Origin: Verrucomicrobiota bacterium | GTDB taxonomy: Bacteria > Verrucomicrobiota > Verrucomicrobiia > Verrucomicrobiales > Akkermansiaceae | Direction of reading: 5' to 3' | Assembly: GCA_039804425.1 (NCBI GenBank) | Contig: JBDLWB010000049.1 | Location: forward strand, 1-43,571 | Length of the DNA: 43,571 nucleotides | The notes under the pieces: generated by a model | The model's database searches: none | The model's input: only the letters and a program-made list of their open reading frames with translations | Told to the model about the DNA's origin: nothing | Made by a program: the position numbers and the translations under genes | Shown: positions 13,400 through 32,558 of the stretch, piece by piece | How the letters are laid out: each line of letters opens with the position of its first letter | Numbering within the stretch: position 1 is the stretch's first letter

Positions 13400-13402
13400 G
13401 TT

Positions 13403-14167: not shown

Positions 14168-14172
14168 GGGAA

Positions 14173-14628: not shown

Positions 14629-14750
14629 GGCCGAAAGATGGACGAGAAACTCTGAGCGGACAAGGACGAACTTTTCGGACTGCGATGGTTTTTGCATTGG
14701 ATTTTTTTGTCCGCCGCGTGCATGCTGGCCGAGTGAACATTGAAGACGAA

Positions 14751-15530: not shown

Positions 15531-16458
15531 TGCGATGGCGGCCATTCGAACATACCACCATCGTGATTTTGATGTCGCTGAGCTTTGCCGAAAAAAGGTC
15601 GACCTGGGCGAGACGGTCAGTGTGGTGATTCCCACCCTTGATGAGCAATCAACCATCGGCGCGATTGTGCACATCATTCGTCAGGAGTTGATGGAACATC
15701 AGCCATTGGTGGATGAGATCATCGTTGTCGATTCAGGATCGCAAGATGACACCGTTGCGCGCGCAAGAACTGCGGGGGCTACAGTGCATCAAGCCGCAGA
15801 AATTCTTCCGAACTTGGGGCAATATCGTGGGAAAGGGGAAAACTTGTGGAAATCGCAATCAGTCACGCGTGGCAGCATTAGCGTTTTTGTTGATGGTGAC
15901 ATTTTGAATTTTCACGCGGGATACATCAGCGGCTTGGTGGGGCCATTGCTTGAGCAATCAGCGCTGCAATACGTCAAAGGCTTTTATCAAAGGCCCTTGT
16001 GCACTCAGCAAGGTGATTTGCAGCAAGAAGGTGGGCGGGTTTCCGAGTTGTTGATGAAGCCCTTTTTTTCCTTGTTTTATCCTGAGCTGCGAGCTCTGCA
16101 TCAACCCCTCGCAGGTGAGTATGCAGTGCGGCGGACCTTACTCGAGAGATTGTCTTTTCCCACGGGTTACGCGGTCGAGGTGGCTCATTTGATTGATGTG
16201 TTCGCTTTGTATGGTTTGGATGTTTTTGCGCAGTGTGATCTTGATTCTCGCCGACATCGCAATCGGCCATTGAGTGAGCTGAGTGATATGTCGTGTTCGT
16301 TGATGCAAGCTTTGTTGTTGCGCGCGGCTCGCGATGGTAAATTGCAATTGTCGGATAAGGTGTGCGAATCGTGGCGAATTGATTCTGCATCGAGCGACGC
16401 CGTAGAGATCGAGCGAGATCCATGGTGTCAAATCAACTCAACATCGATAGCGCCATGA
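15523..16458 (+). CDS. gpgS: Glucosyl-3-phosphoglycerate synthase (GT81 glycosyltransferase)
   Basis: Colinear with mycobacterial GpgS as I recall it: VSVVIPTLDEQSTIG, VVDSGSQDDT, RGKGENLWKS, VFVDGDI, GPLL...YVKGFYQRPL, GGRVSELL, QPLAGEYA, GYAVEV, HRNRPLSELS. It overlaps the hslO stop by 8 nt if the ATG at 15523 is used. Confidence 0.8.
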   Translation: MHSAMAAIRTYHHRDFDVAELCRKKVDLGETVSVVIPTLDEQSTIGAIVHIIRQELMEHQPLVDEIIVVDSGSQDDTVARARTAGATVHQAAEILPNLGQYRGKGENLWKSQSVTRGSISVFVDGDILNFHAGYISGLVGPLLEQSALQYVKGFYQRPLCTQQGDLQQEGGRVSELLMKPFFSLFYPELRALHQPLAGEYAVRRTLLERLSFPTGYAVEVAHLIDVFALYGLDVFAQCDLDSRRHRNRPLSELSDMSCSLMQALLLRAARDGKLQLSDKVCESWRIDSASSDAVEIERDPWCQINSTSIAP

Positions 16459-16892
16459 AGATCCGTCGATTAAGCATCCAGTCAATGCCCGAAATTTTGG
16501 ACTTGTTGTCCTTGATGAACCCCGCGATCGAACGCGAAACGTTGCAGCGTCGATACGAAAAAATTCTTCGCGAATCCAATCATTACCGCATTCTTGGGTG
16601 TGAGTATGACGGTCGACTTGCTGGTCTAACAGGTTTGTGGATTGGGACGAAAATGTGGTGTGGCGATTATGCCGAAATTGACCATTTGATGGTTCATCCA
16701 GACTATCGCAATCGCGGGATTGGCACCGCGTTGATTGTTGCTGCAGAAGACCTGGCCCGCGAACTCGATTGCAACATTATGGTGTTAGATAGCTACACCG
16801 ACAACCATGGGTCGCACCGACTGTACCATCGGCTGGGTTGTGAAATTTGGGGGTTTCATTTCGTCAAACCGTTGAAGCCCTTTCAGCATTAA
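16455..16892 (+). CDS. GNAT-family N-acetyltransferase
   Basis: ATGA overlap with the gpgS stop (16455-16458). Acetyl-CoA binding motif A: LMVHPDYRNRGIGTALIVAAEDLAREL. About 145 aa. Confidence 0.85.
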   Translation: MKIRRLSIQSMPEILDLLSLMNPAIERETLQRRYEKILRESNHYRILGCEYDGRLAGLTGLWIGTKMWCGDYAEIDHLMVHPDYRNRGIGTALIVAAEDLARELDCNIMVLDSYTDNHGSHRLYHRLGCEIWGFHFVKPLKPFQH

Positions 16893-16932
16893 AGGCAGGA
16901 TCACATGGCCTCGAAGTGGATGAGAAGAAAAG

Positions 16933-18642
16933 TCATTCGTGCATCCGCTCAACATTTCGCAGATAAATGCCTCGAGACTCCTCTTTTGACCAAGGAAAAA
17001 ATTGCAGGGTGATGTTGGTTTTTCTGGAGCATTGGCCGTTCGCGGTATCTGTGATGAAAATGCCATAACTTGCGGTCTCGCGTATGAGGTTATCGGCGAT
17101 CACAAAACCAAGGGCGTCGAAGCAGGGTTTGGTGTCAGGATTCCCTATGCGAATGCCTTCTCCGCCGTGCCACTCATCTGCTTCTGCGAGCTTGGTTCCG
17201 CGGATGTGCGAGATGCGATTGCGGCGAATGAAAAACTTTGTGCAGCCCACCATTTCTATGCCCGAACCACCATCCACGTCAGTGATTTCGTTGTCCTCTA
17301 CGACGACCGCATCGGCATGATGCAGCAGAAATGCAACGCCACCGTGTCGTGATGCTAAATGCGGATGATGGACGTCTTTGGTGATCTGGCTGACGCCAGC
17401 AATGGCCTGATGATTGTGTCCCGCGCGTGCCCGTGAGTGATGGTTGAGGATCGTAAGCCCCTGAATGCGATGTTGGGGAGAAGTGGCGTTATTCTCATTT
17501 GCGTTGCGAAAAATGCCAACCCTGACGGCATGGCGGGCCTGGGAAAGTCGATTTTCTGCAATCAAGATGTCGCGGATCAATGCGCGTTCTCCACGACAAT
17601 CGACCTTGCCCTCCTTGTCCCATTTTTCGTGATAAAAAACATCGATGCATCCTTGGCCGATCCACTGCTCGGCGAGATCATGTCCGGTCACAAGATTCTT
17701 TTCGTGAGCCGCGCTGTTCGTAGAAATGTCATTATTCAACACACGGATCTGGCGAGAGCCGAGATTTCGCATCGTTTCTCCGTGCAGTGCATACCAGTTC
17801 CAAGCGGGGTTCGCTTCGATGGAAATGGCCGAGTCTTCACTACGGATGGTATTCCATTGAATGATGGCATTCACCACATTGACCAAATGCAGGCCATCTT
17901 GGGATTGGTGGCAGTGCATGATTCCTCCCGCCTGATCGGTATGTCCCATCCACGTGGTAGAAAGACGACCGGTAGTGATTTGATTGTGATGAAAATGCAC
18001 TTTCTTCACCTGCCCAAAATAGACGCACCATCGATAGCCATCTTGAAATTCCGCATGGTGAATTTGCATGTCGTGCGAACGCTCTATCGCGACCGTATGC
18101 AGATGAGAGCCATCGGGCTCGCAGGTGGGAAATTGTGGGCTGCCAGAGCTGATGAATCGATTGCGATCAAAAGTGCCGGGCCCCTTGATTTCCATGTGCT
18201 CAGCATTCCCGTCAAAGGTGATACCTGAGAGCTCAAAGTTGTCCACTTCCTTGACGTGGAGAATGGCAAGACCGGGAAACAGGCCTTGCGTGTCGTTATC
18301 CCATCGCTCCGCGTGACGCCTCAAGAGAGTCTTGCCCGCACCCGCCCCGCGGAGTTTGATGTTCCTTTTGCCCGTGATCAGCAGATTTTTCACGAGAAAG
18401 CTGCCTGCTGGGAGGAGCACGACATCGCCATCTCGACACGCATCAAGCGCTTGTTGCATGACGCGGGTATTGGTCACTGCGGACTCGTCCCTGACCACGT
18501 GCGGTGCGGTGATGACCAAATCTTGCTGAGGAATTTCGATGATTGCAGCTTCAGCGACTGGCGCGGCCAACAACCACAGGAAGAAGGCCATAAAGTGCAA
18601 CAGGCAAAGGAAAAAAAGTGGGCGATGGAAGGAAACTGGCAT
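16933..18642 (-). CDS. Secreted or membrane-anchored right-handed parallel beta-helix protein (pectate-lyase-fold glycosidase/lyase)
   Basis: Start MPVSFHRPLFFLCLLHFMAFFLWLLAAPVAEA (18642). The N-terminal block MQQALDACRDGDVVLLPAGSFLV...NIKLRGAG is typical of the pectate_lyase_3 / GH28-GH55-like fold. Repeated beta-helix turns follow (ITFDGN, IHHAEF, HFHHNQI, LNNDIS, VEDNEITD, IRRNRISH). Confidence 0.7.
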   Translation of the reverse strand: MPVSFHRPLFFLCLLHFMAFFLWLLAAPVAEAAIIEIPQQDLVITAPHVVRDESAVTNTRVMQQALDACRDGDVVLLPAGSFLVKNLLITGKRNIKLRGAGAGKTLLRRHAERWDNDTQGLFPGLAILHVKEVDNFELSGITFDGNAEHMEIKGPGTFDRNRFISSGSPQFPTCEPDGSHLHTVAIERSHDMQIHHAEFQDGYRWCVYFGQVKKVHFHHNQITTGRLSTTWMGHTDQAGGIMHCHQSQDGLHLVNVVNAIIQWNTIRSEDSAISIEANPAWNWYALHGETMRNLGSRQIRVLNNDISTNSAAHEKNLVTGHDLAEQWIGQGCIDVFYHEKWDKEGKVDCRGERALIRDILIAENRLSQARHAVRVGIFRNANENNATSPQHRIQGLTILNHHSRARAGHNHQAIAGVSQITKDVHHPHLASRHGGVAFLLHHADAVVVEDNEITDVDGGSGIEMVGCTKFFIRRNRISHIRGTKLAEADEWHGGEGIRIGNPDTKPCFDALGFVIADNLIRETASYGIFITDTANGQCSRKTNITLQFFPWSKEESRGIYLRNVERMHE

Positions 18643-18676
18643 GACGGTGAGTCGAGTAGTGCACGCGGCCTGAGTA

Positions 18677-19558
18677 TCATCGACCGCTGCGGAAGCGTTG
18701 TCGATAGAGTGCTGGTGATACACCATTGAGTTTCTTGAAAAAACGGCTGAAGTAGAATTCGTTCGCGAAGCCCAATCGGTCAGCAACTTCTTTGATTTTG
18801 AGATGGTTGTTGAGCAATAGTGCGATCGCTTCTTGATTCAGGCGTCGGTTGATGAACTCTTTGGGGCTCATGCCGACATCATCGGTGAAGGCTTTCGAAA
18901 AAGCGCGCAGTCCCGTGCCGTAGGTTTGGGCGAGTGTGCTGACACGCAAGTTGGCACTGAGTTGATCTTCGACTTGGTCAAAAACGTTTTTGAAAGTGCT
19001 GTGGCTCTTGATGTGATGTTTGACCAAGGTCGAGAGGTCAGGAAGCATTCTTGCCATCCACATGTTGATTTGTGCATGCAAGAACAGCAATTGGTTGGCG
19101 CTGATCGAATAAGGGTCTTCTTGCCAAGGGAGCCAATCTTCAGGATTAATGTCGCCCAATGGAGTGGGGCAACGATCGGGGCGATCGAGCAGTGGGTCGA
19201 TGCCGCGCAACCATTCGCAGCGGATTTTGATGAAAAGAAGTCGACAGTCCATGGAGCAACGTCGCTCCACAGGGGTATTGCCGGGTAAGTAATAGGCACG
19301 GCCAGGCATGATGTCGAGAACCCGACCTTGATGTACTACTTGGCGGTGACCGCTGAGGGGAATGTCGATGTGATGAACATAGTCCGTTTCCTGAGCGCCA
19401 TCACTGCTCCACTCGGGTCCAATTTCGGCAAAGTACATGCCTAACAAGTGAAAGTGCAAATTTTCTGCGAGTTCCAATTCGTGTTGGTGAGTCGATTCGC
19501 TCCACAAAGGATAGGCTTTTTCATGGGCTCTGGGGTTGGTTGTCTCGATTTTTTTCAT
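18677..19558 (-). CDS. AraC-family transcriptional regulator
   Basis: C-terminal double HTH: VSTLAQTYGTGLRAFSKAFTDDVGMSPKEFINRRLNQEAIALLLNNHLKIKEVADRLGFANEFYFSRFFKKLNGVSPALYR. N-terminal cupin-like sensor region. Start taken at ATG 19558. Confidence 0.9.
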   Translation of the reverse strand: MKKIETTNPRAHEKAYPLWSESTHQHELELAENLHFHLLGMYFAEIGPEWSSDGAQETDYVHHIDIPLSGHRQVVHQGRVLDIMPGRAYYLPGNTPVERRCSMDCRLLFIKIRCEWLRGIDPLLDRPDRCPTPLGDINPEDWLPWQEDPYSISANQLLFLHAQINMWMARMLPDLSTLVKHHIKSHSTFKNVFDQVEDQLSANLRVSTLAQTYGTGLRAFSKAFTDDVGMSPKEFINRRLNQEAIALLLNNHLKIKEVADRLGFANEFYFSRFFKKLNGVSPALYRQRFRSGR

Positions 19559-19597
19559 GATGGCCAGAAAATCCTTACACAATTCCTAAGGGAGATG

Positions 19598-19619
19598 GGA
19601 AAAAGTACATGCTTTTTCC
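19598..19619. promoter_or_regulatory. Inverted repeat ggaaaaag-N6-ctttttcc in the divergent control region
   Basis: Perfect 8-bp arms read directly (19598-19605 and 19612-19619), 40 nt upstream of the AraC start. Candidate operator or RNA hairpin. The function is not established. Confidence 0.3.
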
Positions 19620-19665
19620 GCTTTCGTCTATGGCGAAATGAGGATTTTTTGAGTAAATTTCTAGC

Positions 19666-19690
19666 GTTGCATTCATTGCGACTCTGCAAC
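19666..19690. promoter_or_regulatory. Inverted repeat gttgca-N13-tgcaac upstream of the PEP-CTERM gene
   Basis: Perfect 6-bp arms (19666-19671 and 19685-19690), 35 nt upstream of the ATG at 19725. Candidate regulator-binding site. Confidence 0.25.
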
Positions 19691-19724
19691 AAATCAATCA
19701 ATTACAACAAACCCACATCATCCA

Positions 19725-20399
19725 ATGAAAATCAAAAATTCATTACTTCTGGTTCCACTAGCCTTGGTTGCTATGAACACACATTTGCAAGCTGCCGTTG
19801 TCTTCAGCGGAACAGCGCAAAGCACCCCATTTACGGTTGATGCCACGACGCCCTTAACGATTGTTAATGCAGATATTGCCTATAATGCAGGAGAAAATAA
19901 TGCTGTTGGAGGATTTTCTTGGCCTATTCTTGATGATGGATTGGTTCAAAACGCTACTGTCATCAGCGGCGATGCTTCCCCTAATGGCTTACTCTATCGT
20001 CTGACGGATGGTGCTGCTTCGATTGAATCGATTTCTGTTTATTCAGGTTGGGCTAACACTGGCAGAATGGAGCAGTATTACAGCGTGTATTACACCACCG
20101 ATGCTACAGTCAACGGATCATCGACCTGGACTTTATTGACTACCGTGCAAGGAACAACTCCTGGAACACCAACATCTTTCGGAAGTGGTGTGAACAACCA
20201 ATTGAAAGTGACAATTTTCAATGATTCCAGTTCTACTCTCATCGCAAATGCAACTGGTCTTCGTTTTAACTTCGCTGGTGGGCAACAAAATGGCGGTTCT
20301 GGATACAAAGAAATTGATGTCAAGTTAGTCCCCGAAACCTCGACGACTCTCCTTGGTGCGTTGAGTGCGCTCGCGCTGCTGCGTCGCCGTCGCTGCTAA
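19725..20399 (+). CDS. PEP-CTERM sorting-domain protein (small secreted beta-sandwich-like protein)
   Basis: Signal peptide MKIKNSLLLVPLALVAMNTHLQA. C-terminal VPE-TSTTLLGALSALALLRRRRC has the PEP-like motif, a TM helix and an Arg cluster, which together form the PEP-CTERM/exosortase sorting signal. The middle is Thr/Ser/Gly/Asn-rich and beta-strand-like. Confidence 0.85.
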   Translation: MKIKNSLLLVPLALVAMNTHLQAAVVFSGTAQSTPFTVDATTPLTIVNADIAYNAGENNAVGGFSWPILDDGLVQNATVISGDASPNGLLYRLTDGAASIESISVYSGWANTGRMEQYYSVYYTTDATVNGSSTWTLLTTVQGTTPGTPTSFGSGVNNQLKVTIFNDSSSTLIANATGLRFNFAGGQQNGGSGYKEIDVKLVPETSTTLLGALSALALLRRRRC

Positions 20400-20417
20400 T
20401 TTTTTTACGTGGAGTGT

Positions 20418-20455
20418 GGAGCGATGGGTGTGAGCCTGTCGCTCCTTTTCTTTTC
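20418..20455 (+). terminator. Rho-independent terminator after the PEP-CTERM gene
   Basis: Stem ggagcga (20418-20424) pairs with tcgctcc (20439-20445), with a 14-nt loop, followed by ttttcttttc. Confidence 0.6.
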
Positions 20456-20505
20456 GAGATTTTTTCATGTCATTCACTGATCTTTTTTGCTGATTTCTTA
20501 CACCT

Positions 20506-22527
20506 ATGATACGCCATCGACTCAAACAACTCGTCTTGCTCTTGATGCTCAGCGCTCCGTCGCTCAGTCCCTTGCATGCTCAATCGACACCAGCGGAAAA
20601 TTTCCGTGCCATGAAATATGGTTTCTTCGTTCACTACGTGTGGGGCGGTGAGGCCTACACCGTGACCGTCAACAAAGATGGCACCAAGCCGAGTGGCATC
20701 GAAGATCTCACCAAGCGTTTTGATGCCGAGCGTTTTGCGTCCGATATGAGTGCGATGAATGTGGAGTATGTGCTCTTCACCGCATGGCACGCCAACATGA
20801 ATACCCTGTATCCCAGCAAAGTCATGGACAAGTGGCTGCCAGGGCATTCTGCCAAGCGCGATTTGATTGGTGATATGATCAAGGCCTGCAAAGCCAAAGG
20901 CATTCCCGTGTTGCTCTACACGCACCCACGCGATGGACATGACCTAGGACCAGAAGACATGGCCAAAACAGGCTGGCATCCCGGTCAGTCGCCGAATCCC
21001 GATTTCAATCAATGGAACAAGGACAAATGGAATGACTTTGTCAACGAAGTCTACGGCGAGCTCGTCGAGCGTTATGGTAAAGATATTCTCGGTCTTTATC
21101 TCGATGAAGGCAGTGCTGCGGCGGACAGCTATCGCGTCGTCGATTATCCCCGCCTGCGCAAAACGATTACCGCCAAGCATCCGCATCTGATCATGATGCA
21201 GAACGACTACGGAAATCTCTACACCGCTGATATCGGCAACAAAGAAATTTTCTACAACAATGGCTTTGAGACCAGCAATGGCGACGCATGGCCATCGTTC
21301 AAAATCCCGATCACGATTGTCGCGGGCAGCATTTTCTGGGCGGCCTTTCCCGAAGGAAAAATGGCACCTCTTAGCCAGAGTCCGAAAGTAGGATTTAACG
21401 CTTGGGTGCAGTATAGCCCCGAGTCCATGTTGCGCTACACCGTTTTCCAAGCAGGCGCCAACATCGACGGCGGTGGCACCCTATGGGCGGCAGGTCCTTA
21501 TCCCGAAGGGGGCTGGGAAGTGAATGTGTTTGAGCGCATGAAAAAACTGGGTGAGCTGGTGAAGCCGATTGAAAAATCGATCAAAAATACGTTCCCCAGC
21601 ACCTCCTATCCCACCAAGGCCGGCGTCAACATCGCGTCGTTGACGTGGGGCGTGGCAACACAATCGACCGATGGAAAGATCGAGTACTTGCACGTATTGC
21701 GTCCGCCGACGAACTCGAAGACTCTCAAGCTACCTGCTCCAGCGGATGGCAAAAAGTTTGCCAAAGCCATTTTGCTCAAGGGGCTGAAGCCCGCGAATCT
21801 GCGTCAGACCGCCGTAGGCTTGGAGGTTTCCTTGCCTGTGGGAGAAACATGGGATGCGCTTGATACGGTGTTTGCTTTGCAAGTCGCCGCAGACTCTCCT
21901 TCGCAAAATCTGGCTCTTTACAAAACCGTGCGGGCTACCTCGCTCGTAGACAAAAAATACGCCATGCTTGCATCGGACGGAGATCGCAATACGGCATGGA
22001 TCAGTGCTCCCGAAGATGCGAAGCCCTCGTGCTTTGTCGATTTCGGCACGGCGTTGACATTTGATGAAATCAAAGTCGTCGGTCGTATTCCGAGTGGTAG
22101 CGTGCTGGAAGCATCGGATGACATTCATTTCGGCAAAACACAAACGCTAGGCGCATCACCTGAGGTCAAGCCATCGCAATTGCAGATTGTCAAAGCGAGC
22201 TATGGCAAGGGTGAAACTTGGATGGACGTGACAGAAAAATTGCAAGCGATGGTGAAGGATGGAACCATCCAAGCTCAATTGGGCATGGCTGTGGCGGGAG
22301 TCGATCCCGTGCCGAACGTGCTGAAGGAGACGAAGGTCGACTACATCCTGAATGGCAAGAGCGAGAGCATTACCGTGACGGAAGATGGAGTGTTGAGTCT
22401 GGGCAATGATCAAGAGTGGTCCATCAAGCTCAAGTCGCCCGTGAAGAGCCGTTTCCTGCGTCTCGCCAGCAAAAATGAGGGGAGCTGCATCGTGTCGGAA
22501 ATCGAAGTGCGTGCCTCTGCGAACTAA
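20506..22527 (+). CDS. Secreted GH29-like (alpha-L-fucosidase superfamily) glycosidase with C-terminal F5/8 type C (discoidin) domain
   Basis: Signal peptide MIRHRLKQLVLLLMLSAPSLSPLHAQS. N-terminal TIM-barrel blocks parallel GH29: YGFFVHYVWGG, FDAERFASDMSAMNVEYVLFTAWHANMN, RDLIGDMIKACKAKGIPVLLYTHP, LGLYLDEG. They are divergent, for example WHANMN in place of KHHDGF. Discoidin signature NLALYKTVRATS...ASDGDRNTAW...FLRLAS...VSEIEV. Confidence 0.6.
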   Translation: MIRHRLKQLVLLLMLSAPSLSPLHAQSTPAENFRAMKYGFFVHYVWGGEAYTVTVNKDGTKPSGIEDLTKRFDAERFASDMSAMNVEYVLFTAWHANMNTLYPSKVMDKWLPGHSAKRDLIGDMIKACKAKGIPVLLYTHPRDGHDLGPEDMAKTGWHPGQSPNPDFNQWNKDKWNDFVNEVYGELVERYGKDILGLYLDEGSAAADSYRVVDYPRLRKTITAKHPHLIMMQNDYGNLYTADIGNKEIFYNNGFETSNGDAWPSFKIPITIVAGSIFWAAFPEGKMAPLSQSPKVGFNAWVQYSPESMLRYTVFQAGANIDGGGTLWAAGPYPEGGWEVNVFERMKKLGELVKPIEKSIKNTFPSTSYPTKAGVNIASLTWGVATQSTDGKIEYLHVLRPPTNSKTLKLPAPADGKKFAKAILLKGLKPANLRQTAVGLEVSLPVGETWDALDTVFALQVAADSPSQNLALYKTVRATSLVDKKYAMLASDGDRNTAWISAPEDAKPSCFVDFGTALTFDEIKVVGRIPSGSVLEASDDIHFGKTQTLGASPEVKPSQLQIVKASYGKGETWMDVTEKLQAMVKDGTIQAQLGMAVAGVDPVPNVLKETKVDYILNGKSESITVTEDGVLSLGNDQEWSIKLKSPVKSRFLRLASKNEGSCIVSEIEVRASAN

Positions 22528-22551
22528 AGCCATCATTGAGAGAGAAACGAT

Positions 22552-23988
22552 ATGTTCGATCAAAGCTATCCCTTGCGCGTTGGTTTGTTTGGAATCGGCC
22601 TCGAAGCCTATTGGCCACAGTTTCCGGGATTAAAAGAGCGATTGGAGGGTTATGTAGAAATCGTCGCCTCGCACATGGGGCGTCCGGGCGTAGAGATCGT
22701 CAATTTGGGGCTGATCGATTCACCGCAAAAGGCGATGAAAGCGGGCCACGATTTCCGTCGTGCCGATGTTGACGTGATTTTCCTCCATGTAACGACCTAT
22801 GCTTTGAGTTCCACGGTGTTGCCTGTAGTGCAGCGAGCCAAAGTTCCCGTGATCATCTTGAACTTGCAGCCCATCGCTGCGATGGATTATGCGACCTTCA
22901 ACAAACTGGGCAATCGCACCAAGATGACCGGCGAGTGGCTGGCGCATTGCGGTGCGTGTCCGGTGCCAGAAATTGCGAATGCATTCAATCGCGCGGGCAT
23001 TGCCTTCCACCAAATCACTGGCGTACTCGAAGGGGAGCACGCGGTCTGGGAGGAGATGGGTGAATGGATCGATGCCGCGCGCGTCGCTCATGTGATGTCG
23101 CACAATCGACTCGGTTTGATGGGGCATTACTACAATGGCATGCTCGACATTTACACCGATCTCACTCGCATTGTTGCGTATTTCGGTGGCCACATGGAAA
23201 TCCTTGAAGTAGAAGAATTGGCTGCATTGCGCCGTGGGGTAACGGAAGAAGCTGTCGCTGCCAAGATGCGCGAGTTTGCAGAAAAATTCGACATTCAAGC
23301 GGATTGCTCCCACGAGGAATTGCACCGCGCCGCGCGAACGGCTGTGGCGTTGGATTCTCTGATTGCGGAAAAAGAGTTAGGTTCCATGGCCTACTACCAC
23401 ATGGGCACAGGCCAAGATGAGCATGAAGATGTGATGAGCTCGGTGATCCTGGGGAACTCGTTGCTCACCGCGCGCGGCATTCCCGTGGCAGGGGAGTACG
23501 AAGTGAAAAACGTCCAAGCCATGAAGATCATGGATTCCTTTGGTGCAGGCGGATCTTTCACGGAATACTATTGCATGGATTTCGATGACGATGTCGTGCT
23601 CATGGGGCACGATGGTCCTGGTCACATTCGCATTGCTTCGGGGAAAACCAAAGTGCGTCCGCTCGAAGTGTATCATGGAAAAGTCGGTCGAGGTCTGTCC
23701 GTGGAAATGAGTGTGCAGCATGGTCCTATCACTTGTCTTTCCGTTGTTGAATATGCCGATGGCTCGCTCAAACTTTTGGTTGCAGAAGGTGAATCGGTGC
23801 CAGGTCCTATCCTCGAAATTGGCAACACCAACAGTCGCTATCGATTCCCGATCGGCGCGCGTGCTTTTGTGGAAAACTGGAACGTACAAGGTCCTGCTCA
23901 CCACTGCGCTGTGGGAGTCGGGCATATTGCTTCAAAAATCGAAAAGCTAGGCAAGCTGCTGGGCATGGAAACCGTTCGCGTTTGCTGA
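22552..23988 (+). CDS. L-arabinose/L-fucose isomerase superfamily protein (aldose-ketose isomerase, substrate unknown)
   Basis: 478 aa with no signal peptide. AraA-like layout: N-terminal flavodoxin-like block (VGLFGIGLEAYW..., DVIFLHVTTYA) and a C-terminal catalytic-like block GEYEVKNVQAMKIMDSFGAGGSFTEYYCMDFDDDVVLMGHDGPGH and HHCAVGVGH. Confidence 0.7.
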   Translation: MFDQSYPLRVGLFGIGLEAYWPQFPGLKERLEGYVEIVASHMGRPGVEIVNLGLIDSPQKAMKAGHDFRRADVDVIFLHVTTYALSSTVLPVVQRAKVPVIILNLQPIAAMDYATFNKLGNRTKMTGEWLAHCGACPVPEIANAFNRAGIAFHQITGVLEGEHAVWEEMGEWIDAARVAHVMSHNRLGLMGHYYNGMLDIYTDLTRIVAYFGGHMEILEVEELAALRRGVTEEAVAAKMREFAEKFDIQADCSHEELHRAARTAVALDSLIAEKELGSMAYYHMGTGQDEHEDVMSSVILGNSLLTARGIPVAGEYEVKNVQAMKIMDSFGAGGSFTEYYCMDFDDDVVLMGHDGPGHIRIASGKTKVRPLEVYHGKVGRGLSVEMSVQHGPITCLSVVEYADGSLKLLVAEGESVPGPILEIGNTNSRYRFPIGARAFVENWNVQGPAHHCAVGVGHIASKIEKLGKLLGMETVRVC

Positions 23989-24131
23989 TGGGATCGCAGT
24001 CCAGCCTGTGAGTTTTTTGGTATCCAAATCGGCGATCTGCCGTTATTTCTTTTTCGCATCCATCCCACTCCGCTTTGAAAAAACATTCTTCTTCCCAAGA
24101 CCATTTTGCTGAGTCGACAAAAACGTTATCG

Positions 24132-27100
24132 ATGAGTTCTGCTATGATTGATCAAGATCGGAATCAGTCGCTACGCGATTCATTTCTCAATCCTCCGTCG
24201 ACTCATGGACCGATCCCGTTTTATTGGTGGGTAGGAGAACCCTTGCAACGCGAGCGAATTTCCTGGCAGTTGGATCAGCTCGCGGACAAAGGAGTGAAGC
24301 AGGCGGTGATTAGTTATCCGCACGATGAGAAAGGGCATACCGATCTTGGTGATCCTGCGTTATTTTCCCCTCAGTGGTGGGATTTATTCCGCTGGTTTCT
24401 CGGGCAATGCAAGCAGCGCGGCATGACGGTGGGGTTCCAGGATTACACCCTGGTGGAACCGATTTTGTTAGCGATCGGGCAAAGCACGCCGGATATGCAA
24501 GGTGGTCAGATGGATTGTCGATCGCAGAAGGTTGGTGCTGCTGAGGCGCTTCGACTCAGCATCGACCCCGGGTGTTCTGCTGTGGCTGCCTGGGCCTATC
24601 CCTTGGTCGATGAGGTTGCTCAGATCGACGGTGCGATTTCGCTACTCGAACAAATCGACGAAAGCGTTTTGACGTGGCAAGCGCCTGCGGGTGACTGGCT
24701 TGTAGCGCTGGTTTTCGTGCGTCCCAATGCTTTCGACCCCATGCACCCCGATGCGGGAAAACTGGCGATCGATCAACTTTATGCTCCCTTTGAGAGAGAA
24801 TGTCCTGGGGAAGTCGGCAAGACGCTCAATTTGTTCTTCCAAGACGAGCTCGGTTTTGGTTGTCGAATGCCCTTTTGGTCGAATCGTTTGATGGAGCGTT
24901 TTGTTGCTCAAAAAGGCTATGATCTGGCTCCTTTGTTGCCTGCATTGTGGCATGATGTGGGTGCAATCACCGAGAAAGTTCGCATCGATTATGCTGATGT
25001 TGTGGTGACGACGTTAGAGGAACGGTACTTTCGACCTGTTTTTGAGTGGCACGAGCAGCGAGGGGTCATGTTTGGTCATGATAACTCGGGGCGAGGGCGC
25101 ATGGCACAAGGTCGGTCATTTTATGGAGATTACTTCCGCACCATGCGGTGGTTTTCGGCACCTGGATGTGATGATCCGAAGCTGCATGGAGCGCGTGCGT
25201 TCAAAGGCTTGAAAGTGAATAGTTCGATTGCGCATTTGTATCAGCGTCCTCGGGTATGGATCGAGGCCTTTCACTCCAGTGGTTGGGGGACCCAGCCGGC
25301 GGATGTGATGGCGGCATTGAATGAAGACTTCGCGTATGGTGCGACCGTTGTGAATCTTCATGGGCTTTACTATTCGACTCGTGCAGGTTGGTGGGAGTGG
25401 GCTCCTCCTGACTTCCATTTCCGTCAGCCGTATTGGCAGCATGCCAAGGTCTGGAATCAGGCGTTGACTCGATTGAGTTGGATTCTATCGCAAGGAGTGC
25501 ATCGTTGTGATGTTGGCATCGTGTATCCCATCGAAGCTCTGGATGTGGAAGCCGTTGATCCGTCGATGTCGGGCGTGGTGGCTCATGTCGAAAACGAGAA
25601 TGTTGGTGCGGATCAGCAAGATCCTAGGGGGGCTGAAGAAACGGCATTCGTGATCGGCAAGCACCTATTCGATCATGCTTGTGATTTTGATTTTGTGGAC
25701 TTTGAATCCATCGCTTCAGCGCAAGTAAAAGATGGCATCATGTTCGCGAGAAATGCGCAATACCGGGTGTTGGTGATCCCCGCGATGCGCGCTTTGCGTT
25801 ATGCTTCTTTGTTGAAAGCACGAGATTTTGTTAGAGAAGGTGGTCTAGTGATTGCCTTTGGTTGCTTGCCAAAAGCAAGCGAACGCGCGGGTCGTGACGA
25901 TGCTGAGTTGGATGCGTTGTTGCTGGAAATTTTCGGTTCCCGGGAGGATCGTGAGGATTTACTCAAACGGCATCCCTCTGGCGGCATGGGAGTGTTTTTG
26001 GCGAGTGATTTTAGACGTGTATTGAGTCAAGTCTCGCAGGTGATCGATCGCGCGGTTACTTCATCCAAACCGCTACAAGTTTTGCATCGAGAAATGGGTG
26101 AGAGCGATGTCTATTTCATCAACAACGCATCCGACGATGTCGTGACAAGCCAGTTGCGTTTTCGGTCGCAGGGTCGATGTGAGATTTGGGATGCGATGAG
26201 TGGTGGCATGGAACCCTTAGATTTCGTCGACGAGTTGTCGTTAACTCTTGCGGCACGCCAAGCCCATTTGTTGGTGATTCAACGCGGGGAAACATCAAAT
26301 CCACTGCAGCAAATTGACCAGAGCGTGCAGCAGCGCGAAACCATCATTCCCCTTGAGGGGGCGTGGGACTCATTGTTAGAGCCGACGCTCGACAATCGAT
26401 ATGCCGACTTTTCCTTGCCTGCCTCATCGGAGTTGTTAGGGGCACAAACGCGTCGATTCCGATATTGTGAGGAGCACGAAGAGAGTCATGGATGGCAAGC
26501 GGTTGACTTTGATGATGCCGCTTGGTCACAAACGAGTTATTCCTACGGTCCTCAAATGGAGGTGATAGGCCCCTTTGCGCCAGAGAGTGACGAGGCGAAG
26601 CGCGAGCAGCTTGTGATAGGGAAATCCGACAAAGAGTGGCATGAATATCATTTTTCCCGACGTTGGGGCATAGAAAACGATCCCTTTCTCACCGACTGGC
26701 TGAGTGGGCCTCATGGACTGAAGGGTGTTGTGCCAGACGATTATTTGGATTTTTACACGGAGGTCCCTGGCAGTGTTTGGTATGTCCGAGCAAAAGTTGT
26801 CGCACCTATGGCTGGTGAATACCAGCTCGTGACAGGTGCGCGCTGTCGTTATCAAGTATGGATCAACGGAGCGTCTGTGTTAGAGCAGACAGAGGAATCA
26901 GGGCCTGGACGCCATGCACCTTGGAACATTCCCCACTACGAATGTGAGCATCGTGAGACTCGCGTTTCACTGGTCGATGGCGAGAATGACATTTTGCTCC
27001 AATTGGTTCAGCCCGTTGGTCAGAGAACTCGCGCTTTCTTGGCTTTCAATCCGCCGCAACATGATCGTAGTCGACTGGCGTTGCGATGGTTTACGGATTC

Positions 27101-27761
27101 GTCGTTACCACGACCCTGCTATCTCGCACCTGCATCGCGCCGTGCCATTCGTTTTCGATTTGTTGCGCCTTCAGGGGCCAAAGAAATTTCCTTTGTTTCG
27201 CGTGGTCCGTGTCGTGCATGGGTGGATGGCCTAGAGATCCCGCTGCAAGTCATCGAAAAGATCGATGGAAATGGCATTCGCTACCGCGGCGTGCTGGAGT
27301 CGGCTTCTCTGCAAAATGCCATCGTAGCATTGCGAGTCGAAGCACCGCGTGATTCGCATGCGGGGGATGCATTGCCAGAGCCTGTGACATATGTTTGTGT
27401 TGCTGGTCAAATGGAGTGCGGTGATTGGTGTGCGCAAGGGCTCGCGAGCTATTCGGGCATGGTTCACTATTCGCGACGCCTGACTGTCGTTGAGCCCTTT
27501 AAGCGTGCAACGCTTGACCTTGGTCACGTTGCGGCAACGGCAGAGGTTCAGGTCAATGGTTGTGTGGTGGCGACTCTGCTATCACCGCCATGGACCTGTG
27601 ATCTGAGTTCTCATCTCCACGTAGGAGAAAACGAATTGACGGTTACTGTCGCGAATACGCTTGCGAATCACTACAGTGTTGGTATTCCTTCACCCTACGC
27701 ATTCACTCATCAAACTCCCTCAGGCTTAATCGGTCCTGTGCAATTGATCCTTCACTCCTAA
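24132..27761 (+). CDS. Large cytoplasmic GH106-like glycoside hydrolase (alpha-L-rhamnosidase-like) with C-terminal galactose-binding-like domains
   Basis: N-terminal FLNPPSTHGPIPFYWWVGEPLQRERISWQLDQLADKGVKQAVISY mirrors the GH106 opening block (F.NPP...P..fWfW.g......i..dl..m...G). The C-terminal LDLGHVAATAEVQVNGCVVATLLSPPWTCDLSSHLHVGENELTVTVANTLAN is the usual terminal sugar-binding sandwich. No signal peptide from ATG 24132. The track uses TTG 24075. Confidence 0.6.
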   Translation: MSSAMIDQDRNQSLRDSFLNPPSTHGPIPFYWWVGEPLQRERISWQLDQLADKGVKQAVISYPHDEKGHTDLGDPALFSPQWWDLFRWFLGQCKQRGMTVGFQDYTLVEPILLAIGQSTPDMQGGQMDCRSQKVGAAEALRLSIDPGCSAVAAWAYPLVDEVAQIDGAISLLEQIDESVLTWQAPAGDWLVALVFVRPNAFDPMHPDAGKLAIDQLYAPFERECPGEVGKTLNLFFQDELGFGCRMPFWSNRLMERFVAQKGYDLAPLLPALWHDVGAITEKVRIDYADVVVTTLEERYFRPVFEWHEQRGVMFGHDNSGRGRMAQGRSFYGDYFRTMRWFSAPGCDDPKLHGARAFKGLKVNSSIAHLYQRPRVWIEAFHSSGWGTQPADVMAALNEDFAYGATVVNLHGLYYSTRAGWWEWAPPDFHFRQPYWQHAKVWNQALTRLSWILSQGVHRCDVGIVYPIEALDVEAVDPSMSGVVAHVENENVGADQQDPRGAEETAFVIGKHLFDHACDFDFVDFESIASAQVKDGIMFARNAQYRVLVIPAMRALRYASLLKARDFVREGGLVIAFGCLPKASERAGRDDAELDALLLEIFGSREDREDLLKRHPSGGMGVFLASDFRRVLSQVSQVIDRAVTSSKPLQVLHREMGESDVYFINNASDDVVTSQLRFRSQGRCEIWDAMSGGMEPLDFVDELSLTLAARQAHLLVIQRGETSNPLQQIDQSVQQRETIIPLEGAWDSLLEPTLDNRYADFSLPASSELLGAQTRRFRYCEEHEESHGWQAVDFDDAAWSQTSYSYGPQMEVIGPFAPESDEAKREQLVIGKSDKEWHEYHFSRRWGIENDPFLTDWLSGPHGLKGVVPDDYLDFYTEVPGSVWYVRAKVVAPMAGEYQLVTGARCRYQVWINGASVLEQTEESGPGRHAPWNIPHYECEHRETRVSLVDGENDILLQLVQPVGQRTRAFLAFNPPQHDRSRLALRWFTDSSLPRPCYLAPASRRAIRFRFVAPSGAKEISFVSRGPCRAWVDGLEIPLQVIEKIDGNGIRYRGVLESASLQNAIVALRVEAPRDSHAGDALPEPVTYVCVAGQMECGDWCAQGLASYSGMVHYSRRLTVVEPFKRATLDLGHVAATAEVQVNGCVVATLLSPPWTCDLSSHLHVGENELTVTVANTLANHYSVGIPSPYAFTHQTPSGLIGPVQLILHS

Positions 27762-27847
27762 CCATTTCCATCTGAGCATTCATGGGATTCGTCATTTTTT
27801 GATCGGATGCCTTGATTGCGAAAAAACTCCACCACAATCCCAATTCT

Positions 27848-29293
27848 ATGACATCAAAAAACAAAACTTGCGGCACTGGAAGTATGTTCACCTACTCGTT
27901 AGGTGAATGTGCGAACTCTCTGGTGATGAATGGAATTTTTGGCTTTGCCATGCTATTCTATACCAAATCACTCGGGTTGAATCCTTCATGGGCAGGTTTC
28001 GCCATGTCGCTCTCGGTGTTTTGGGAGGCCATTACGGAACCAGTGATGGGGCATATTAGCGACAACACTCGCAGCAAGTGGGGGCGTCGTCATCCTTACA
28101 TGCTTTTTGGAGGATTGTTGATGGCCCTTTGCTCTTATTTGATCTGGACTGTGCCGGGATTTTGCCGAGGCAGTCAGATGTCGATTTTTTGGTATCTGGT
28201 TACGATGAATCTCTTGCTGCGCACTGGATTAACGATGTTTTTCATCCCTTACATGGCGCTTGGATTTGAAATGTGTACCGACTATGAAGGTCGCTCGCGT
28301 CTTCAAGGCATTCGTCAAATTCTCAATATGGCAGCAAACTTTGCCGGTCCAGCGATGGCTTGGGTGATTTTCTTTGGGGGCGAGGGCAATCATCAAGCAA
28401 CGACTGTTGAAGAAAACTATCATCACATGGGTGCTGCATTCGCGATAGCAACAGCCGTTTTTGTGTTGCTTGTCGTGTTTTTGACTCTTCGCTGGCGTGA
28501 AGATACCCGTCATGCTACCATCACCAGTGAGCATGGGTGGTTTCAGCAATTTTTCATCGAAATGAAACAGATCCTTGCAGATCCCAATCCGCGATGGGTG
28601 TTTGTGTTTATCTTCATTGTTTGTTGCGGCATGGTCATCGTCGGTTCCTTGCAAATGTTTGTGTATGATGACTTCATGAAATTTCCCGCTTGGCAGAAGT
28701 CGATGGCTCACGGTGGCACGATGGTCGGGATGGCCTTGGGCGCAGCGTTGTCAGTGGGACTTTCAAAGAAATTTGACAAAAAGGGTGCGGTTCTCATTGG
28801 TGGCGTCATTAGCATCTCTTGCAATGTGATGTTGGGTGTTTTATTCCTGACCGGATGGTTGAAGCCTGATGCGACGACGTTGTTGGGTGGAACCAAGGTG
28901 CCGATTGCATTCATCTTGTTCGTTCTGTTTCATGCGACCTATTGGTTAGGCAACGGCATCATGCTGCCAGTTTCAACCGCGATGATGGCGGATGTGAGCG
29001 AGGTGCGTCGACTGGAGACGGGCGAGGTTCGCGATGGTGGTTATTCATCGGTCTTTAGTTTGGCCATGCGCATGGCCATTTCATTCAGTCTTGTGGTGTC
29101 GGGTTGGTGCTTGAGTGGGATTGGTTATCAAGTGCCGGCCCCGGATGCTGGACAAACACCTCAGGCGATTTGGAACCTTGGCATGATTACCTTTATCATT
29201 GGCGCGTTGATTTGCTTCTTGTCCTTGCTTGCCATTCGCCGTTATCCCATTACGCGTGTGGTATTAGAGAAAATGCGCGATCGTGCGAAGTAG
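27848..29293 (+). CDS. GPH-family (glycoside-pentoside-hexuronide):cation symporter / MFS transporter
   Basis: About 12 TM helices. GPH motif GHISDNTRSKWGRRHPYM after TM2. Start ATG 27848 (alternatives TTG 27812, ATG 27884). Confidence 0.8.
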   Translation: MTSKNKTCGTGSMFTYSLGECANSLVMNGIFGFAMLFYTKSLGLNPSWAGFAMSLSVFWEAITEPVMGHISDNTRSKWGRRHPYMLFGGLLMALCSYLIWTVPGFCRGSQMSIFWYLVTMNLLLRTGLTMFFIPYMALGFEMCTDYEGRSRLQGIRQILNMAANFAGPAMAWVIFFGGEGNHQATTVEENYHHMGAAFAIATAVFVLLVVFLTLRWREDTRHATITSEHGWFQQFFIEMKQILADPNPRWVFVFIFIVCCGMVIVGSLQMFVYDDFMKFPAWQKSMAHGGTMVGMALGAALSVGLSKKFDKKGAVLIGGVISISCNVMLGVLFLTGWLKPDATTLLGGTKVPIAFILFVLFHATYWLGNGIMLPVSTAMMADVSEVRRLETGEVRDGGYSSVFSLAMRMAISFSLVVSGWCLSGIGYQVPAPDAGQTPQAIWNLGMITFIIGALICFLSLLAIRRYPITRVVLEKMRDRAK

Positions 29294-29366
29294 AAGGCAG
29301 GTTTTTCTGCGATCGATGCCGAGAATGTTCCTTGCTCTGAGGTGAGTCAGGAGCTTGAATGCACCA

Positions 29367-30170
29367 ATGCAAAAGCTGCTTTTTGTTTGGGTGTTGATGT
29401 GGGTGCTTCCGCTCCATGCTGTGGAGTGGAAGATGCACAAAAGTTCCATCTATCCTGGGACCGTTCGGCAATATGGGGTGCACCTCACACCGGGGAATGA
29501 TCCCCAAAAGCCTGCTGCTTTGATGGTGTTTCAGGATGGGCATGCGTATGTGAAGGGTGACTTCAAAGCGCCGCAAGTCATGGATCGCTTGGTAGAACAG
29601 AAAAAGATTCCTCCCATGGTGCTAGTGTTTGTCAATCCCGGCATCTTTGCGGATGAGTTGACGAGCGAACCGGGATGGAATTTACCCAAAGATCGAAAAA
29701 GCAATCGTTCGGTGGAGTATGATACGCTCTCCGCGCAGTATGTGACGATGTTAGAAAAAGAAATTCTGCCCTTGGTCGAGAAAAGCCAAATGTTGAGCAA
29801 AGATCCGCAACAACGTGCGATTTGTGGCATTTCTTCGGGGGGCATCTGTGCCTTTACGGCAGCGTGGGAGCGTCCGGATTTGTTTGGCAAAGTCATGAGC
29901 CACGTGGGAAGCTTTACCAACATTCGTGGTGGGCATGTGTATCCTGCTTTGATCCGCCAAGCGAGCAAACGTCCGCTACGAGTGTTTTTGCAGGATGGCA
30001 GCAACGATCTCGACAATCAGTATGGCAATTGGTTTCTCGCCAATCAACAAATGGCTGCGGCGTTGAAATTTCGACAGTATGATTTTCGCTTTGTCACCGA
30101 TGATACGGGGCACGGAGGCAAGGGTGGGGGAAAGATCTTTGCGGAGAGCATCGAGTGGTTGTGGCGTTGA
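29367..30170 (+). CDS. Secreted esterase (esterase D / enterochelin-esterase-like alpha/beta hydrolase, CE1-like)
   Basis: Signal peptide MQKLLFVWVLMWVLPLHA. Nucleophile elbow GISSGG within RAICGISSGGICAF. NRSVEYD...ILPLV blocks are typical of the 'putative esterase' family. Possible His in the terminal TDDTGHGG. Confidence 0.75.
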   Translation: MQKLLFVWVLMWVLPLHAVEWKMHKSSIYPGTVRQYGVHLTPGNDPQKPAALMVFQDGHAYVKGDFKAPQVMDRLVEQKKIPPMVLVFVNPGIFADELTSEPGWNLPKDRKSNRSVEYDTLSAQYVTMLEKEILPLVEKSQMLSKDPQQRAICGISSGGICAFTAAWERPDLFGKVMSHVGSFTNIRGGHVYPALIRQASKRPLRVFLQDGSNDLDNQYGNWFLANQQMAAALKFRQYDFRFVTDDTGHGGKGGGKIFAESIEWLWR

Positions 30171-30213
30171 ATTCTGACTTGTCCGCTGCGATGCTTTGCT
30201 GCATCTTTGGGAT

Positions 30214-31182
30214 ATGGCCACACCACATAAGATTCGTACCGTCAACGCCATCACCGTGGGGGACTTTTTTGAGCGTCACAAGTCGTCTTTGGGGCTCGAG
30301 TTGCTCAGCGAAAAGCATGATCTCAAGCGCTTGATTCGCGAGCCAGCAGTGAATCGTCCGGGCTTAGCTCTTGCGGGATTTTTGACGTATTTTGCCCGTA
30401 AGCGCATTCAAATTTTAGGGAATTCGGAAATTTCCTATCTTGAAAAACTCACCCCGATGCGACAGATGGCGCGTTTTCGTCGACTGTGCAAAGAGGGAAT
30501 TCCTTGCTTGGTGATATCGCGCAGTCGAACCTTGCCACAGCATTTGATCGATCTCGCGGCGGAGTTCGAGCTCCCCATTTTTGGCACGACGCAGGTAACG
30601 ATGAAGTTTCTTAACGCTGCCACCTTGCGCCTAGAAAATGATTTTTCGCCCAGCACGACATTGCACGGGTGCATGGTTGACGTGCGCGGCATTGGCGTGT
30701 TGATCATGGGTAAGAGTGGCGTAGGAAAATCGGAAACGGCGATTGGTTTGATTGAGAAAGGTGCATCGTTGGTGGCGGACGATATGGTGCGAGTCAAATT
30801 TTCTGGTGGTGAGTTGATCGCATATTCGCCTGATCTGTCACGTGGTTATATTGAAATGCGCGGCATTGGCATCGTCAACGTTGCGAACCTTTATGGTCTT
30901 GCTGCCATTCGACCAGAAAAACGTTTGGATTTGATTGTTACCTTAAAGTCGCATGCGGATCTCAACAATGTTGATCGTGTGGGGATTCAGACCAATACCA
31001 TCGATGTCTTGGGGGAGGCCATTCCTCATGTGGAAATTCCTGTAGCACCGGGACGCGAAAATGCCCGGATGATTACCATCGCTGCTTTGGATCAGCAGTT
31101 GCGACGATTGGGATACAACATGGCTGATGAGTTCAATCAGCGATTGCTCAAGCACATGAGCGAAGGAGGTAGTGCTTCTTAA
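30214..31182 (+). CDS. hprK: HPr kinase/phosphorylase
   Basis: Walker A GKSGVGKSETA, followed by LVADD and the signature EMRGIGIVNV. About 320 aa. ATG at 30214. Confidence 0.9.
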   Translation: MATPHKIRTVNAITVGDFFERHKSSLGLELLSEKHDLKRLIREPAVNRPGLALAGFLTYFARKRIQILGNSEISYLEKLTPMRQMARFRRLCKEGIPCLVISRSRTLPQHLIDLAAEFELPIFGTTQVTMKFLNAATLRLENDFSPSTTLHGCMVDVRGIGVLIMGKSGVGKSETAIGLIEKGASLVADDMVRVKFSGGELIAYSPDLSRGYIEMRGIGIVNVANLYGLAAIRPEKRLDLIVTLKSHADLNNVDRVGIQTNTIDVLGEAIPHVEIPVAPGRENARMITIAALDQQLRRLGYNMADEFNQRLLKHMSEGGSAS

Positions 31183-31188
31183 GTCGGC

Positions 31189-32517: not shown

Positions 32518-32532
32518 AGTCCATCTTTAGCA

Positions 32533-32546: not shown

Positions 32547-32558
32547 GTGCGAATTTTG

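Follow-up and report, generated by a model that had tools for sequence, protein, structure and literature searches.

A Verrucomicrobial glycan-utilisation cluster with divergent GH106- and GH29-related enzymes and an AraA-fold isomerase associated with L-rhamnose loci

The DNA analysed here, called the window below, is a stretch of 43,571 nucleotides from a Verrucomicrobiota bacterium of the Akkermansiaceae (assembly GCA_039804425.1, contig JBDLWB010000049.1). Eight consecutive genes in its central part had been described in an earlier note, made from the sequence alone, as one system for the use of a glycan containing L-fucose or L-rhamnose. All 8 of the 8 open reading frames (ORFs) named there are present and their families largely match (ORF list, Pfam and NCBIfam). 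That the region holds a carbohydrate-utilisation cluster of a Verrucomicrobium is borne out, the nearest related loci being those of metagenome-assembled genomes (MAGs) assigned to Verrucomicrobia, Verrucomicrobiales and Verrucomicrobiaceae. The locus is a glycan-utilisation cluster built from divergent GH106 and GH29 subfamilies, and not a polysaccharide utilisation locus (PUL) of the Bacteroidota kind. Our preferred reading, which we hold with modest confidence, is that the region from 18.7 to 30.2 kb forms an operon by which a Verrucomicrobium uses a glycan or glycoside; this target most likely contains alpha-L-rhamnose and is probably acylated.

Genes of the cluster and their layout

The ORFs of the window were assigned to families with Pfam and NCBIfam models, and localisation signals were judged by inspection of the N-termini. 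The features of the cluster are as follows.

16933–18786, minus strand: beta-helix protein (Beta_helix, 39 bits); likely start at 18642 (Met49)
18677–19582, minus strand: AraC-family regulator, divergent from the operon (HTH_18, 67.3 bits; HTH_AraC, 56.7 bits)
19725–20399, plus strand: small exported PEP-CTERM-like protein, with signal peptide and C-terminal tail
20418–20445, plus strand: terminator-like hairpin with a 12-bp stem, 7 G-C pairs and a T-rich tail (consensus match only)
20506–22527, plus strand: exported GH29-related glycosidase with F5/8 type C domain (Alpha_L_fucos, PF01120, 50.9 bits)
22552–23988, plus strand: AraA/FucI-superfamily isomerase, predicted cytoplasmic (profile, fold, residues)
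24075–27761, plus strand: GH106-like protein of 1228 aa, predicted cytoplasmic (Glyco_hydro_106, PF17132, 118.6 bits); likely start at 24144
27812–29293, plus strand: GPH-family (MFS_2) cation symporter (PF13347, 231.9 bits)
29355–30170, plus strand: exported CE1-like serine esterase (PF00756, 69.8 bits)

The genes for the GH29-like enzyme, the isomerase, the GH106-like enzyme, the GPH symporter and the esterase follow one another in this order on the plus strand and are co-directional from 20506 to 30170, with gaps of 24–86 nt. The hairpin, strongly terminator-like by consensus, sits between the PEP-CTERM gene and this downstream operon, and the beta-helix gene is co-directional with the AraC gene. 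Promoter scans of the locus gave fewer matches than shuffled sequence and are therefore uninformative on co-regulation. Signal peptides were recognised in the beta-helix protein (from Met49), the PEP-CTERM protein, the GH29-like enzyme and the esterase, while the isomerase and the GH106-like protein both lack one. The earlier note had divided the products into exported enzymes, an importer of the GPH family, and an isomerase and a GH106-like protein in the cytoplasm; the families and the signal-peptide inspection agree with this division.

It also holds that no TonB-dependent or SusD component, sulfatase, kinase or aldolase is found among the genes of 16.9–30.2 kb. Domains of SusC-like TonB-dependent transporters and SusD-like lipoproteins were detected by Pfam and NCBIfam neither in the ORFs of 16.9–32.5 kb nor in the related Verrucomicrobial loci. 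The lack of SusC/D had been taken as atypical. However, SusC/D pairs define Bacteroidota PULs, so their absence is what would be expected outside this phylum. Like such PULs, the locus brings together a regulator, exported carbohydrate-active enzymes (CAZymes), an esterase and an uptake component; unlike them, it has no SusC/SusD or TonB receptor, and the proposed uptake would proceed via an inner-membrane symporter, with the final hydrolysis in the cytoplasm.

Divergent glycosidases and a conserved GH106-like/GPH unit

The GH106-like protein exceeds the Pfam cutoff for its family widely (cutoff 29 bits). Its best NCBIfam match, to the model of BT4145-type rhamnosidases, lies far below cutoff (102 bits versus 1300). 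A profile of the GH106-like family (A3) matches the GH106 structures 6q2f (E 6e-49) and 5mqm (E 1e-47) in four collinear segments, and the homology to the GH106 rhamnosidases BT0986 (5MQM/5MWK), BT4145 and Novosphingobium RHA-P (6Q2F) extends over the N-terminal, barrel, middle and C-terminal jelly-roll regions. The family-invariant residues D257, E258 and E397 are at or next to the 6q2f barrel motifs 'TDSIE' and 'AAESM', the register of the first motif being shifted by one or two residues; the acidic pair of GH106 presumably provides the catalytic residues of an inverting mechanism. The GH106-like proteins start straight at a conserved 'F.NPP..HGP.PFYWW' block with no leader, unlike the canonical GH106 and GH78 enzymes encoded near isomerase genes, which mostly carry signal peptides. 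A database protein with 99% identity to the GH106-like protein of the window has 1205 aa. By these comparisons the protein appears to be a divergent enzyme of GH106, the alpha-L-rhamnosidase family, with a predicted cytoplasmic location. In contrast to canonical GH106 enzymes, it lacks a signal peptide and has a symporter as partner rather than a periplasmic or SusCD system. This symporter is well above the PF13347 cutoff of 27 bits and reaches 138.5 bits with TIGR00792, under the cutoff of 231.

The GH29-like protein matches PF01120 above cutoff (25.2 bits) over profile positions 92–227 of 345 only, and GH29 structures match it at E 2e-11. Its catalytic module spans about aa 30–460, and a scan confined to the C-terminus gives 29.5 bits for the F5/8 type C domain. 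A single-sequence AlphaFold model of the protein has a pLDDT of 38, too low for use. In the family alignment (A2), H43, H95, R118, D119, D200, E247 and E338 are invariant. D200, in 'LYLDEG', is at the spacing expected after the aligned 'YG' for the nucleophile, which GH29 enzymes carry in a 'WFDG'-type motif behind beta-strand 4; the HMMER alignment ends at residue 192, so that the equivalence of this residue is a probable one. The earlier note had pointed to WHANMN in place of the His-His block of GH29, and this is correct: the protein has 'TAWHANMN' at residues 92–99, with A-W-H-A-N where the GH29 substrate motif would read K/R-H-H-D/E-G-F, and the change is conserved family-wide, H95 being invariant and W94 shared by at least 90% of the members. 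Compared with GH29 alpha-L-fucosidases, homology is thus seen in the N-terminal half of the barrel, and the first His, the R-D pair and the Asp at the probable nucleophile position are kept; the differences are the Trp-His motif, the partial profile match and the membership of a small separate family. This family comprises 246 clusters at 50% identity (E<=1e-30), and its members are often found inside proteins of 1000–2600 aa. At window positions 21868–22524, a small module, 'KA.YGKG...DVT...DP.PN..K', interrupts or follows the F5/8 type C domain; this module matches PF11875 (DnaJ-like C11 C-terminal) at 20–23 bits and is kept in long GH29-like paralogs.

Related loci, designated by L and a number, were collected via the isomerase (31 from genomes and 80 from metagenomes), and nine more via GH106-like and Firmicute isomerase homologs. 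The closest relative, L003 (Verrucomicrobia MAG PH2015_08D_54_98), is collinear with the window over 18676–34087, and its gene order is AraC, a different PEP-CTERM protein, GH29-like, isomerase, GH106-like, GPH, esterase, HprK and CCA enzyme. In L004–L006 (Verrucomicrobiales/Verrucomicrobiaceae) the GH29-like, isomerase and GH106-like genes are kept in order, the contig of L005 ending inside the GH106-like gene; L004 and L006 additionally keep the GPH gene and gain two GH29-like paralogs, and they carry giant exported proteins upstream (DUF5703_N/F5-8C in L004, others in L006). The core across related Verrucomicrobial contigs thus consists of a GH29-related glycosidase, an AraA-fold isomerase, a GH106-like enzyme and a GPH symporter, in most cases accompanied by an AraC gene. 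A comparison of the locus across relatives had been proposed as a check on the system, and this core is indeed syntenic.

The most stable element is smaller. GH106-like and GPH genes occur together in 10 of 10 complete loci, with homologs down to 45% identity. They are directly adjacent in the window, L003, L035, L036, L121 and L122, and lie in the same cluster in L004, L006, L034 and L120. Among these ten loci, GH29-like paralogs are present in 8 (beside the GH106-like/GPH genes in L004, L006, L034, L036, L120 and L122) and AraC-type regulators in 7; further frequent companions are surface proteins of PATR or N-methyl type. Occasional ones are an exported canonical GH106 (L120), a GH28/RHGA-type gene (L121), CE2_N (L034) and SASA (L122). 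The conserved unit is therefore the GH106-like enzyme plus the GPH symporter, with GH29-like enzymes, regulator and esterase as frequent companions, and the isomerase is attached to this unit in one Verrucomicrobial sublineage. An isomerase gene adjoins a GH106-like homolog also in the Bacillota MAG L031.

Two further observations concern these loci. The segment with the GH29-like and isomerase genes (window 20605–23988) is 89% nucleotide-identical to L003, the flanking aligned blocks all being at 72–77%; a recent recombination or transfer event, or else unusually strong constraint, could account for the difference. Giant PATR-repeat proteins of 1500–2600 aa flank the GH106-like/GPH genes at L034:1969–9900, L120:1–6244 and L035:16201–23292. 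One of them bears GH29-like and CE2_N domains, and these proteins may be surface-displayed multi-enzymes.

The membership of the other genes is uneven. An AraC ortholog occupies the corresponding position in L003 (75% aa identity), and in L006, L035, L121 and L122 the core likewise has AraC genes at its flank; the AraC protein is likely the local regulator of the operon. The esterase exceeds the PF00756 cutoff of 22 bits, contains a 'GISSG' (G-x-S-x-G) motif and has CE1/feruloyl esterases as nearest solved structures. It is conserved in L003 (80% aa identity) and in no other relative, other esterase families being those of L034 and L122. Such recurrence of esterases of differing family fits an acylated substrate, in agreement with the earlier suggestion of a possibly acetylated glycan.

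The PEP-CTERM protein has a visible 'VPE..TM..RRRRC' C-terminal tail but no match in the Pfam scan, PF07589 included, and only 19.3 bits with NF038129 (cutoff 65). Its gene is variable, as the different protein in L003 indicates. Residues 100–216 are similar to the C-terminal part of a GH78 protein of 1397 aa (L082:4631–8824; 29% identity, E 3e-6). Pfam matches neither protein, and the resemblance hints at a shared, undescribed binding module. The PEP-CTERM protein is a variable accessory and possibly binds carbohydrate at the surface. The beta-helix protein shows only faint matches (rhamnogalacturonidase, 22 bits; exopolygalacturonase structure, E 0.06). No homolog of it was found in any of the about 120 collected loci, so we rejected this gene as a component of the system; it lies in a strain-specific indel. 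The proposal that eight genes make up one system therefore stands for the AraC, GH29-like, isomerase, GH106-like and GPH genes, with the esterase shared by one relative, and fails for the strain-specific beta-helix gene and the variable PEP-CTERM gene.

The isomerase family and L-rhamnose loci

No match to the isomerase was returned by phmmer against the PDB, but a profile of its family matches AraA structures at E 2e-17. The AF2 model (pLDDT 88) superposes on AraA with a TM score of 0.85, at 16–17% identity, and on FucI with 0.73. E315, E338, H353 and H450/H451 are invariant and align to E. coli AraA E306, E333, H350 and H450, so the catalytic residues are AraA-type and not FucI-type. The protein thus shares with E. 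coli AraA (2AJT/4F2D) the fold and the Glu/Glu/His/His set. It fails the AraA equivalog NF002795 (41.5 bits versus a cutoff of 622), a score near that with the sulfoquinovose isomerase model (38.7 bits), and its family is never found with araB or araD. The fold also differs from RhaA (PF06134) and from the xylose-isomerase-like RhaI. The family has more than 8000 database matches, typically about 80% identical within a clade, under generic public names such as 'L-arabinose isomerase' and 'L-fucose/L-arabinose isomerase family protein'.

The neighbours of the isomerase were counted over 115 loci carrying this family, 91 of which have at least 2.5 kb of flank, and their assignments were checked by Pfam/NCBIfam. 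A rhamnose-linked gene lies within 6 kb of the isomerase in 53 of these 91. Within the same distance, the 115 loci contain an exported GH39-like family (23 loci), AraC-type regulators (22), canonical GH106 (21), RhaM mutarotase (18), RhaT permease (11), GH78 (11), GH106-like (8) and GH29-like (7). The best-labelled matches over the whole loci are RhaM in 20, RhaT in 12, RhaI in 9, RhaA in 5, a rhamnulokinase-type FGGY kinase (RhaB) in 7 and RhaEW in 6. Queries with E. coli AraB, AraD, FucI, FucK-specific, FucA, FucP, FucO, UxaA, UxaC, UxuA, UxuB and RhaD found no match in the 115 loci; an ExuT-like gene occurs in only 3, and the FGGY neighbours all score best as rhamnulokinase. With rhamnose genes recurrent and the arabinose, fucose and uronate controls nil, L-rhamnose is the sole monosaccharide pathway recurrently linked to the isomerase.

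This link spans Verrucomicrobiota, Acidobacteriota, Actinomycetota, Chloroflexota and Bacillota, where the isomerase family is hosted by rhamnose loci of known kinds (rhaBAD-rhaM-rhaT, or RhaI/RhaEW variants). Examples are isomerase-RhaM-RhaB-RhaI-RhaEW-LutB-LutC in L024 (Solirubrobacteraceae), rhaM-isomerase-ABC transporter-RhaEW-RhaI-RhaB in L117 (Caldalkalibacillus), isomerase-RhaM-RhaA in L047, isomerase-RhaT-RhaA-RhaT in L097, and AraC followed by a two-gene isomerase-RhaM unit in Paenibacillus and Neobacillus. Absence of a kinase and an aldolase from the cluster had been read as a gap in the pathway. Since the same isomerase family adjoins RhaB, RhaEW, RhaM and RhaT in other lineages, the missing genes probably lie in another part of this genome. 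Two candidates within the window were rejected: for the kinase, the FGGY kinase at 4459–6048, which resembles xylulokinases, is without homologs in related loci and is separated from the cluster by a rearrangement; and, for RhaI, a xylose-isomerase-like TIM-barrel gene at 11348–12493, which gives no RhaI match.

We also considered that the AraA-fold isomerase replaces RhaA, as L024, L015 and L025 seemed to suggest. This was rejected, as RhaA is found in L015, RhaI in L024, and one or the other accompanies the isomerase in 6 of the 7 loci with RhaB and/or RhaEW, the exception, L025, ending at a contig end. In all, RhaA or RhaI coexists with the isomerase in 14 loci. The isomerase is thus an extra member of rhamnose loci and not a replacement. 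We know of no AraA-fold enzyme listed in the classical rhamnose pathway. Found in at least five phyla and kept alongside RhaA/RhaI, the family may act on something outside the textbook rhamnose pathway; candidate substrates are a second aldose that converges on this pathway, or a sugar partner released with rhamnose.

Two side observations were made at these loci. The GH39-like exported family (about 508 aa, Pfam GH39 29–41 bits; L012:8291–9817, L103:3515–5041 and about 20 other loci) is the commonest isomerase neighbour in Acidobacteria-type loci, often as a RhaM-GH39-like unit divergent from the isomerase. In the Solirubrobacteraceae MAG, L024:3170–6390 holds RhaI and the RhaEW aldolase/dehydrogenase in one 1061-aa ORF, either a fusion or a missed stop/start.

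Proposed pathway, alternatives and surrounding genes

We propose that the exported GH29-related glycosidase, with its discoidin-type binding domain, and the CE1-like esterase would act on the substrate outside the cytoplasm, trimming it and removing ester groups. In relatives, this extracellular step may further involve a GH28, a canonical GH106 that is exported, or giant enzymes with PATR or PEP-CTERM anchors. The GPH symporter would then import a small rhamnoside or oligosaccharide, which the signal-peptide-less GH106-like enzyme would cleave in the cytoplasm. The logic would be that of melB/melA and uidB/uidA of E. coli, where a GPH symporter gene likewise stands beside that of a signal-peptide-less glycoside hydrolase splitting the imported glycoside; here, in contrast, the hydrolase is a GH106 relative of about 1200 aa, and the pair stands among genes for exported trimming enzymes and for an isomerase. 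The metal-dependent AraA-fold isomerase would convert the released aldose, L-rhamnose or a sugar accompanying it, to the ketose, and phosphorylation and aldol cleavage would be encoded elsewhere in the genome.

Several observations weigh against a rhamnose-directed operon. The GH106-like family is only about 20–25% identical to canonical GH106 and has an extra segment of about 350 aa (residues 770–1120) with no GH106 counterpart, so its specificity could differ from that of canonical GH106. The place of the GH29-related enzyme in a rhamnoside pathway is unexplained. The isomerase is missing from the GH106-like/GPH loci L034–L036 and L120–L122, no rhamnose gene is within reach in 28 long isomerase loci, and the whole 43.6-kb window holds no rhamnose catabolic or transport gene. 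Moreover, with RhaA/RhaI in 6 of the 7 loci that show RhaB and/or RhaEW, and a canonical rhamnose isomerase in or beside the apparent operon of the isomerase in L047, L101, L043, L097, L023 and L030, the enzyme is not simply 'the' rhamnose isomerase.

A pectin of rhamnogalacturonan-I (RG-I) type is an unlikely target. The symporter would then take up Rha-GalA-type oligomers, the GH106-like enzyme would split them as BT4145 does, and the isomerase would act on D-galacturonate or D-galactose rather than on rhamnose, which would account for its coexistence with RhaA or RhaI. The best NCBIfam match of the GH106-like protein points this way, BT4145 presumably belonging to the RG-I locus of B. thetaiotaomicron, but its 102 bits are far from the cutoff. 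The GH28/RHGA-type gene of L121 and the faint pectinolytic matches of the beta-helix protein also agree with pectin, the beta-helix gene, however, not being conserved. GPH carriers include hexuronide transporters and AraA acts on galacto-configured sugars; yet homologs of UxaA, UxaC, UxuA and UxuB occur in no isomerase locus, ExuT-like genes in the 3 loci already mentioned, and in Bacillales the isomerase forms two-gene units with RhaM.

We consider quite unlikely a reading in which the GH29-related enzymes attack a fucose-rich glycan as genuine alpha-L-fucosidases, with the isomerase as a FucI analogue that forms L-fuculose. The PF01120 and GH29 structure matches and the conserved Asp at the probable nucleophile position are in line with this, as are the canonical GH29 gene that flanks the isomerase in L014 and the GH29-like genes that flank it in 7–8 loci. 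The L-fucose and L-rhamnose pathways, moreover, both end in dihydroxyacetone phosphate (DHAP) and lactaldehyde, so that this part could be shared. Nevertheless, FucI, FucA, FucP and FucO homologs are found in 0 of 115 isomerase loci, where FGGY kinases are of rhamnulokinase type and GH29 neighbours are far outnumbered by rhamnosidases and RhaM. The active site is AraA-type, as is the better structural fit, the His-His motif is changed to Trp-His throughout the family, and the locus has no sulfatase. The link to a 6-deoxy-L-hexose made in the earlier note is thus supported by the isomerase neighbours, and its L-fucose branch is weakened.

An ordinary L-arabinose isomerase, in a cluster aimed at arabinose-containing glycans, is very unlikely: the public names, the AraA fold and catalytic residues and a GH127 neighbour in L014 would suit it, whereas the equivalog score, the 16–17% identity to solved AraA structures and the absence of AraB or AraD (near 0 of 115 isomerase loci) do not. 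Each of these three rivals has some support, but fewer observations favour it than favour L-rhamnose. Finally, a chance juxtaposition of eight genes with no functional coupling, as the non-conserved beta-helix and PEP-CTERM genes and the rearrangement at 14.2–18.7 kb might suggest, is hardly credible and is largely refuted by synteny, with a core collinear in four relatives and the GH106-like/GPH pair in every complete locus.

Returning to the rhamnoside-directed operon, a bolder proposal, which we put forward only tentatively, is that the isomerase represents an unrecognised step or branch of L-rhamnose (or rhamnose-glycan) catabolism and that the GH106-like and Trp-His GH29-like enzymes represent new specificities in an import-then-cleave rhamnoside system; 'unrecognised' is here judged from database names. 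The isomerase family is a regular member of L-rhamnose loci that duplicates no known step. Once the substrate of the family is assigned, many annotations as 'arabinose isomerase' would be corrected, and deoxyhexose catabolism could gain a reaction. For the two divergent CAZyme subfamilies, GH106-like and GH29-like, no assayed member was found in solved structures or database names. Verrucomicrobia play a major part in the breakdown of plant, algal and microbial glycans, and to our knowledge their non-SusCD uptake routes are poorly described. Surface trimming, GPH import and cytoplasmic GH106-type hydrolysis would provide a testable model for this group.

The surroundings of the cluster were also compared. 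An HPr kinase/phosphorylase gene (30196–31182) starts 25 nt after the esterase gene; it is conserved there in L003 (95% aa identity), is absent from the other related loci, and may be co-transcribed with the operon. On the other side, window 8273–18676 compares with L003 1–5970: the part from 8273 to 14250 is inverted relative to L003, and the part from 14250 to 18676 (Hsp33-like, GT2, GNAT and beta-helix genes) is an insertion with no counterpart there. The genes at 2047–7229, for an MBL-fold hydrolase, a TIGR03790-family protein (318 bits), the xylulokinase-like FGGY kinase and a hydroxyacid dehydrogenase, appear unrelated to the operon. At 38270–43057, the window encodes a pair made up of a DUF1501 protein and a PSCyt1/PSCyt2/PSD1 plus LamG protein; such DUF1501 and PSCyt1/PSCyt2/PSD1 pairs are typical of Planctomycetes and Verrucomicrobia.

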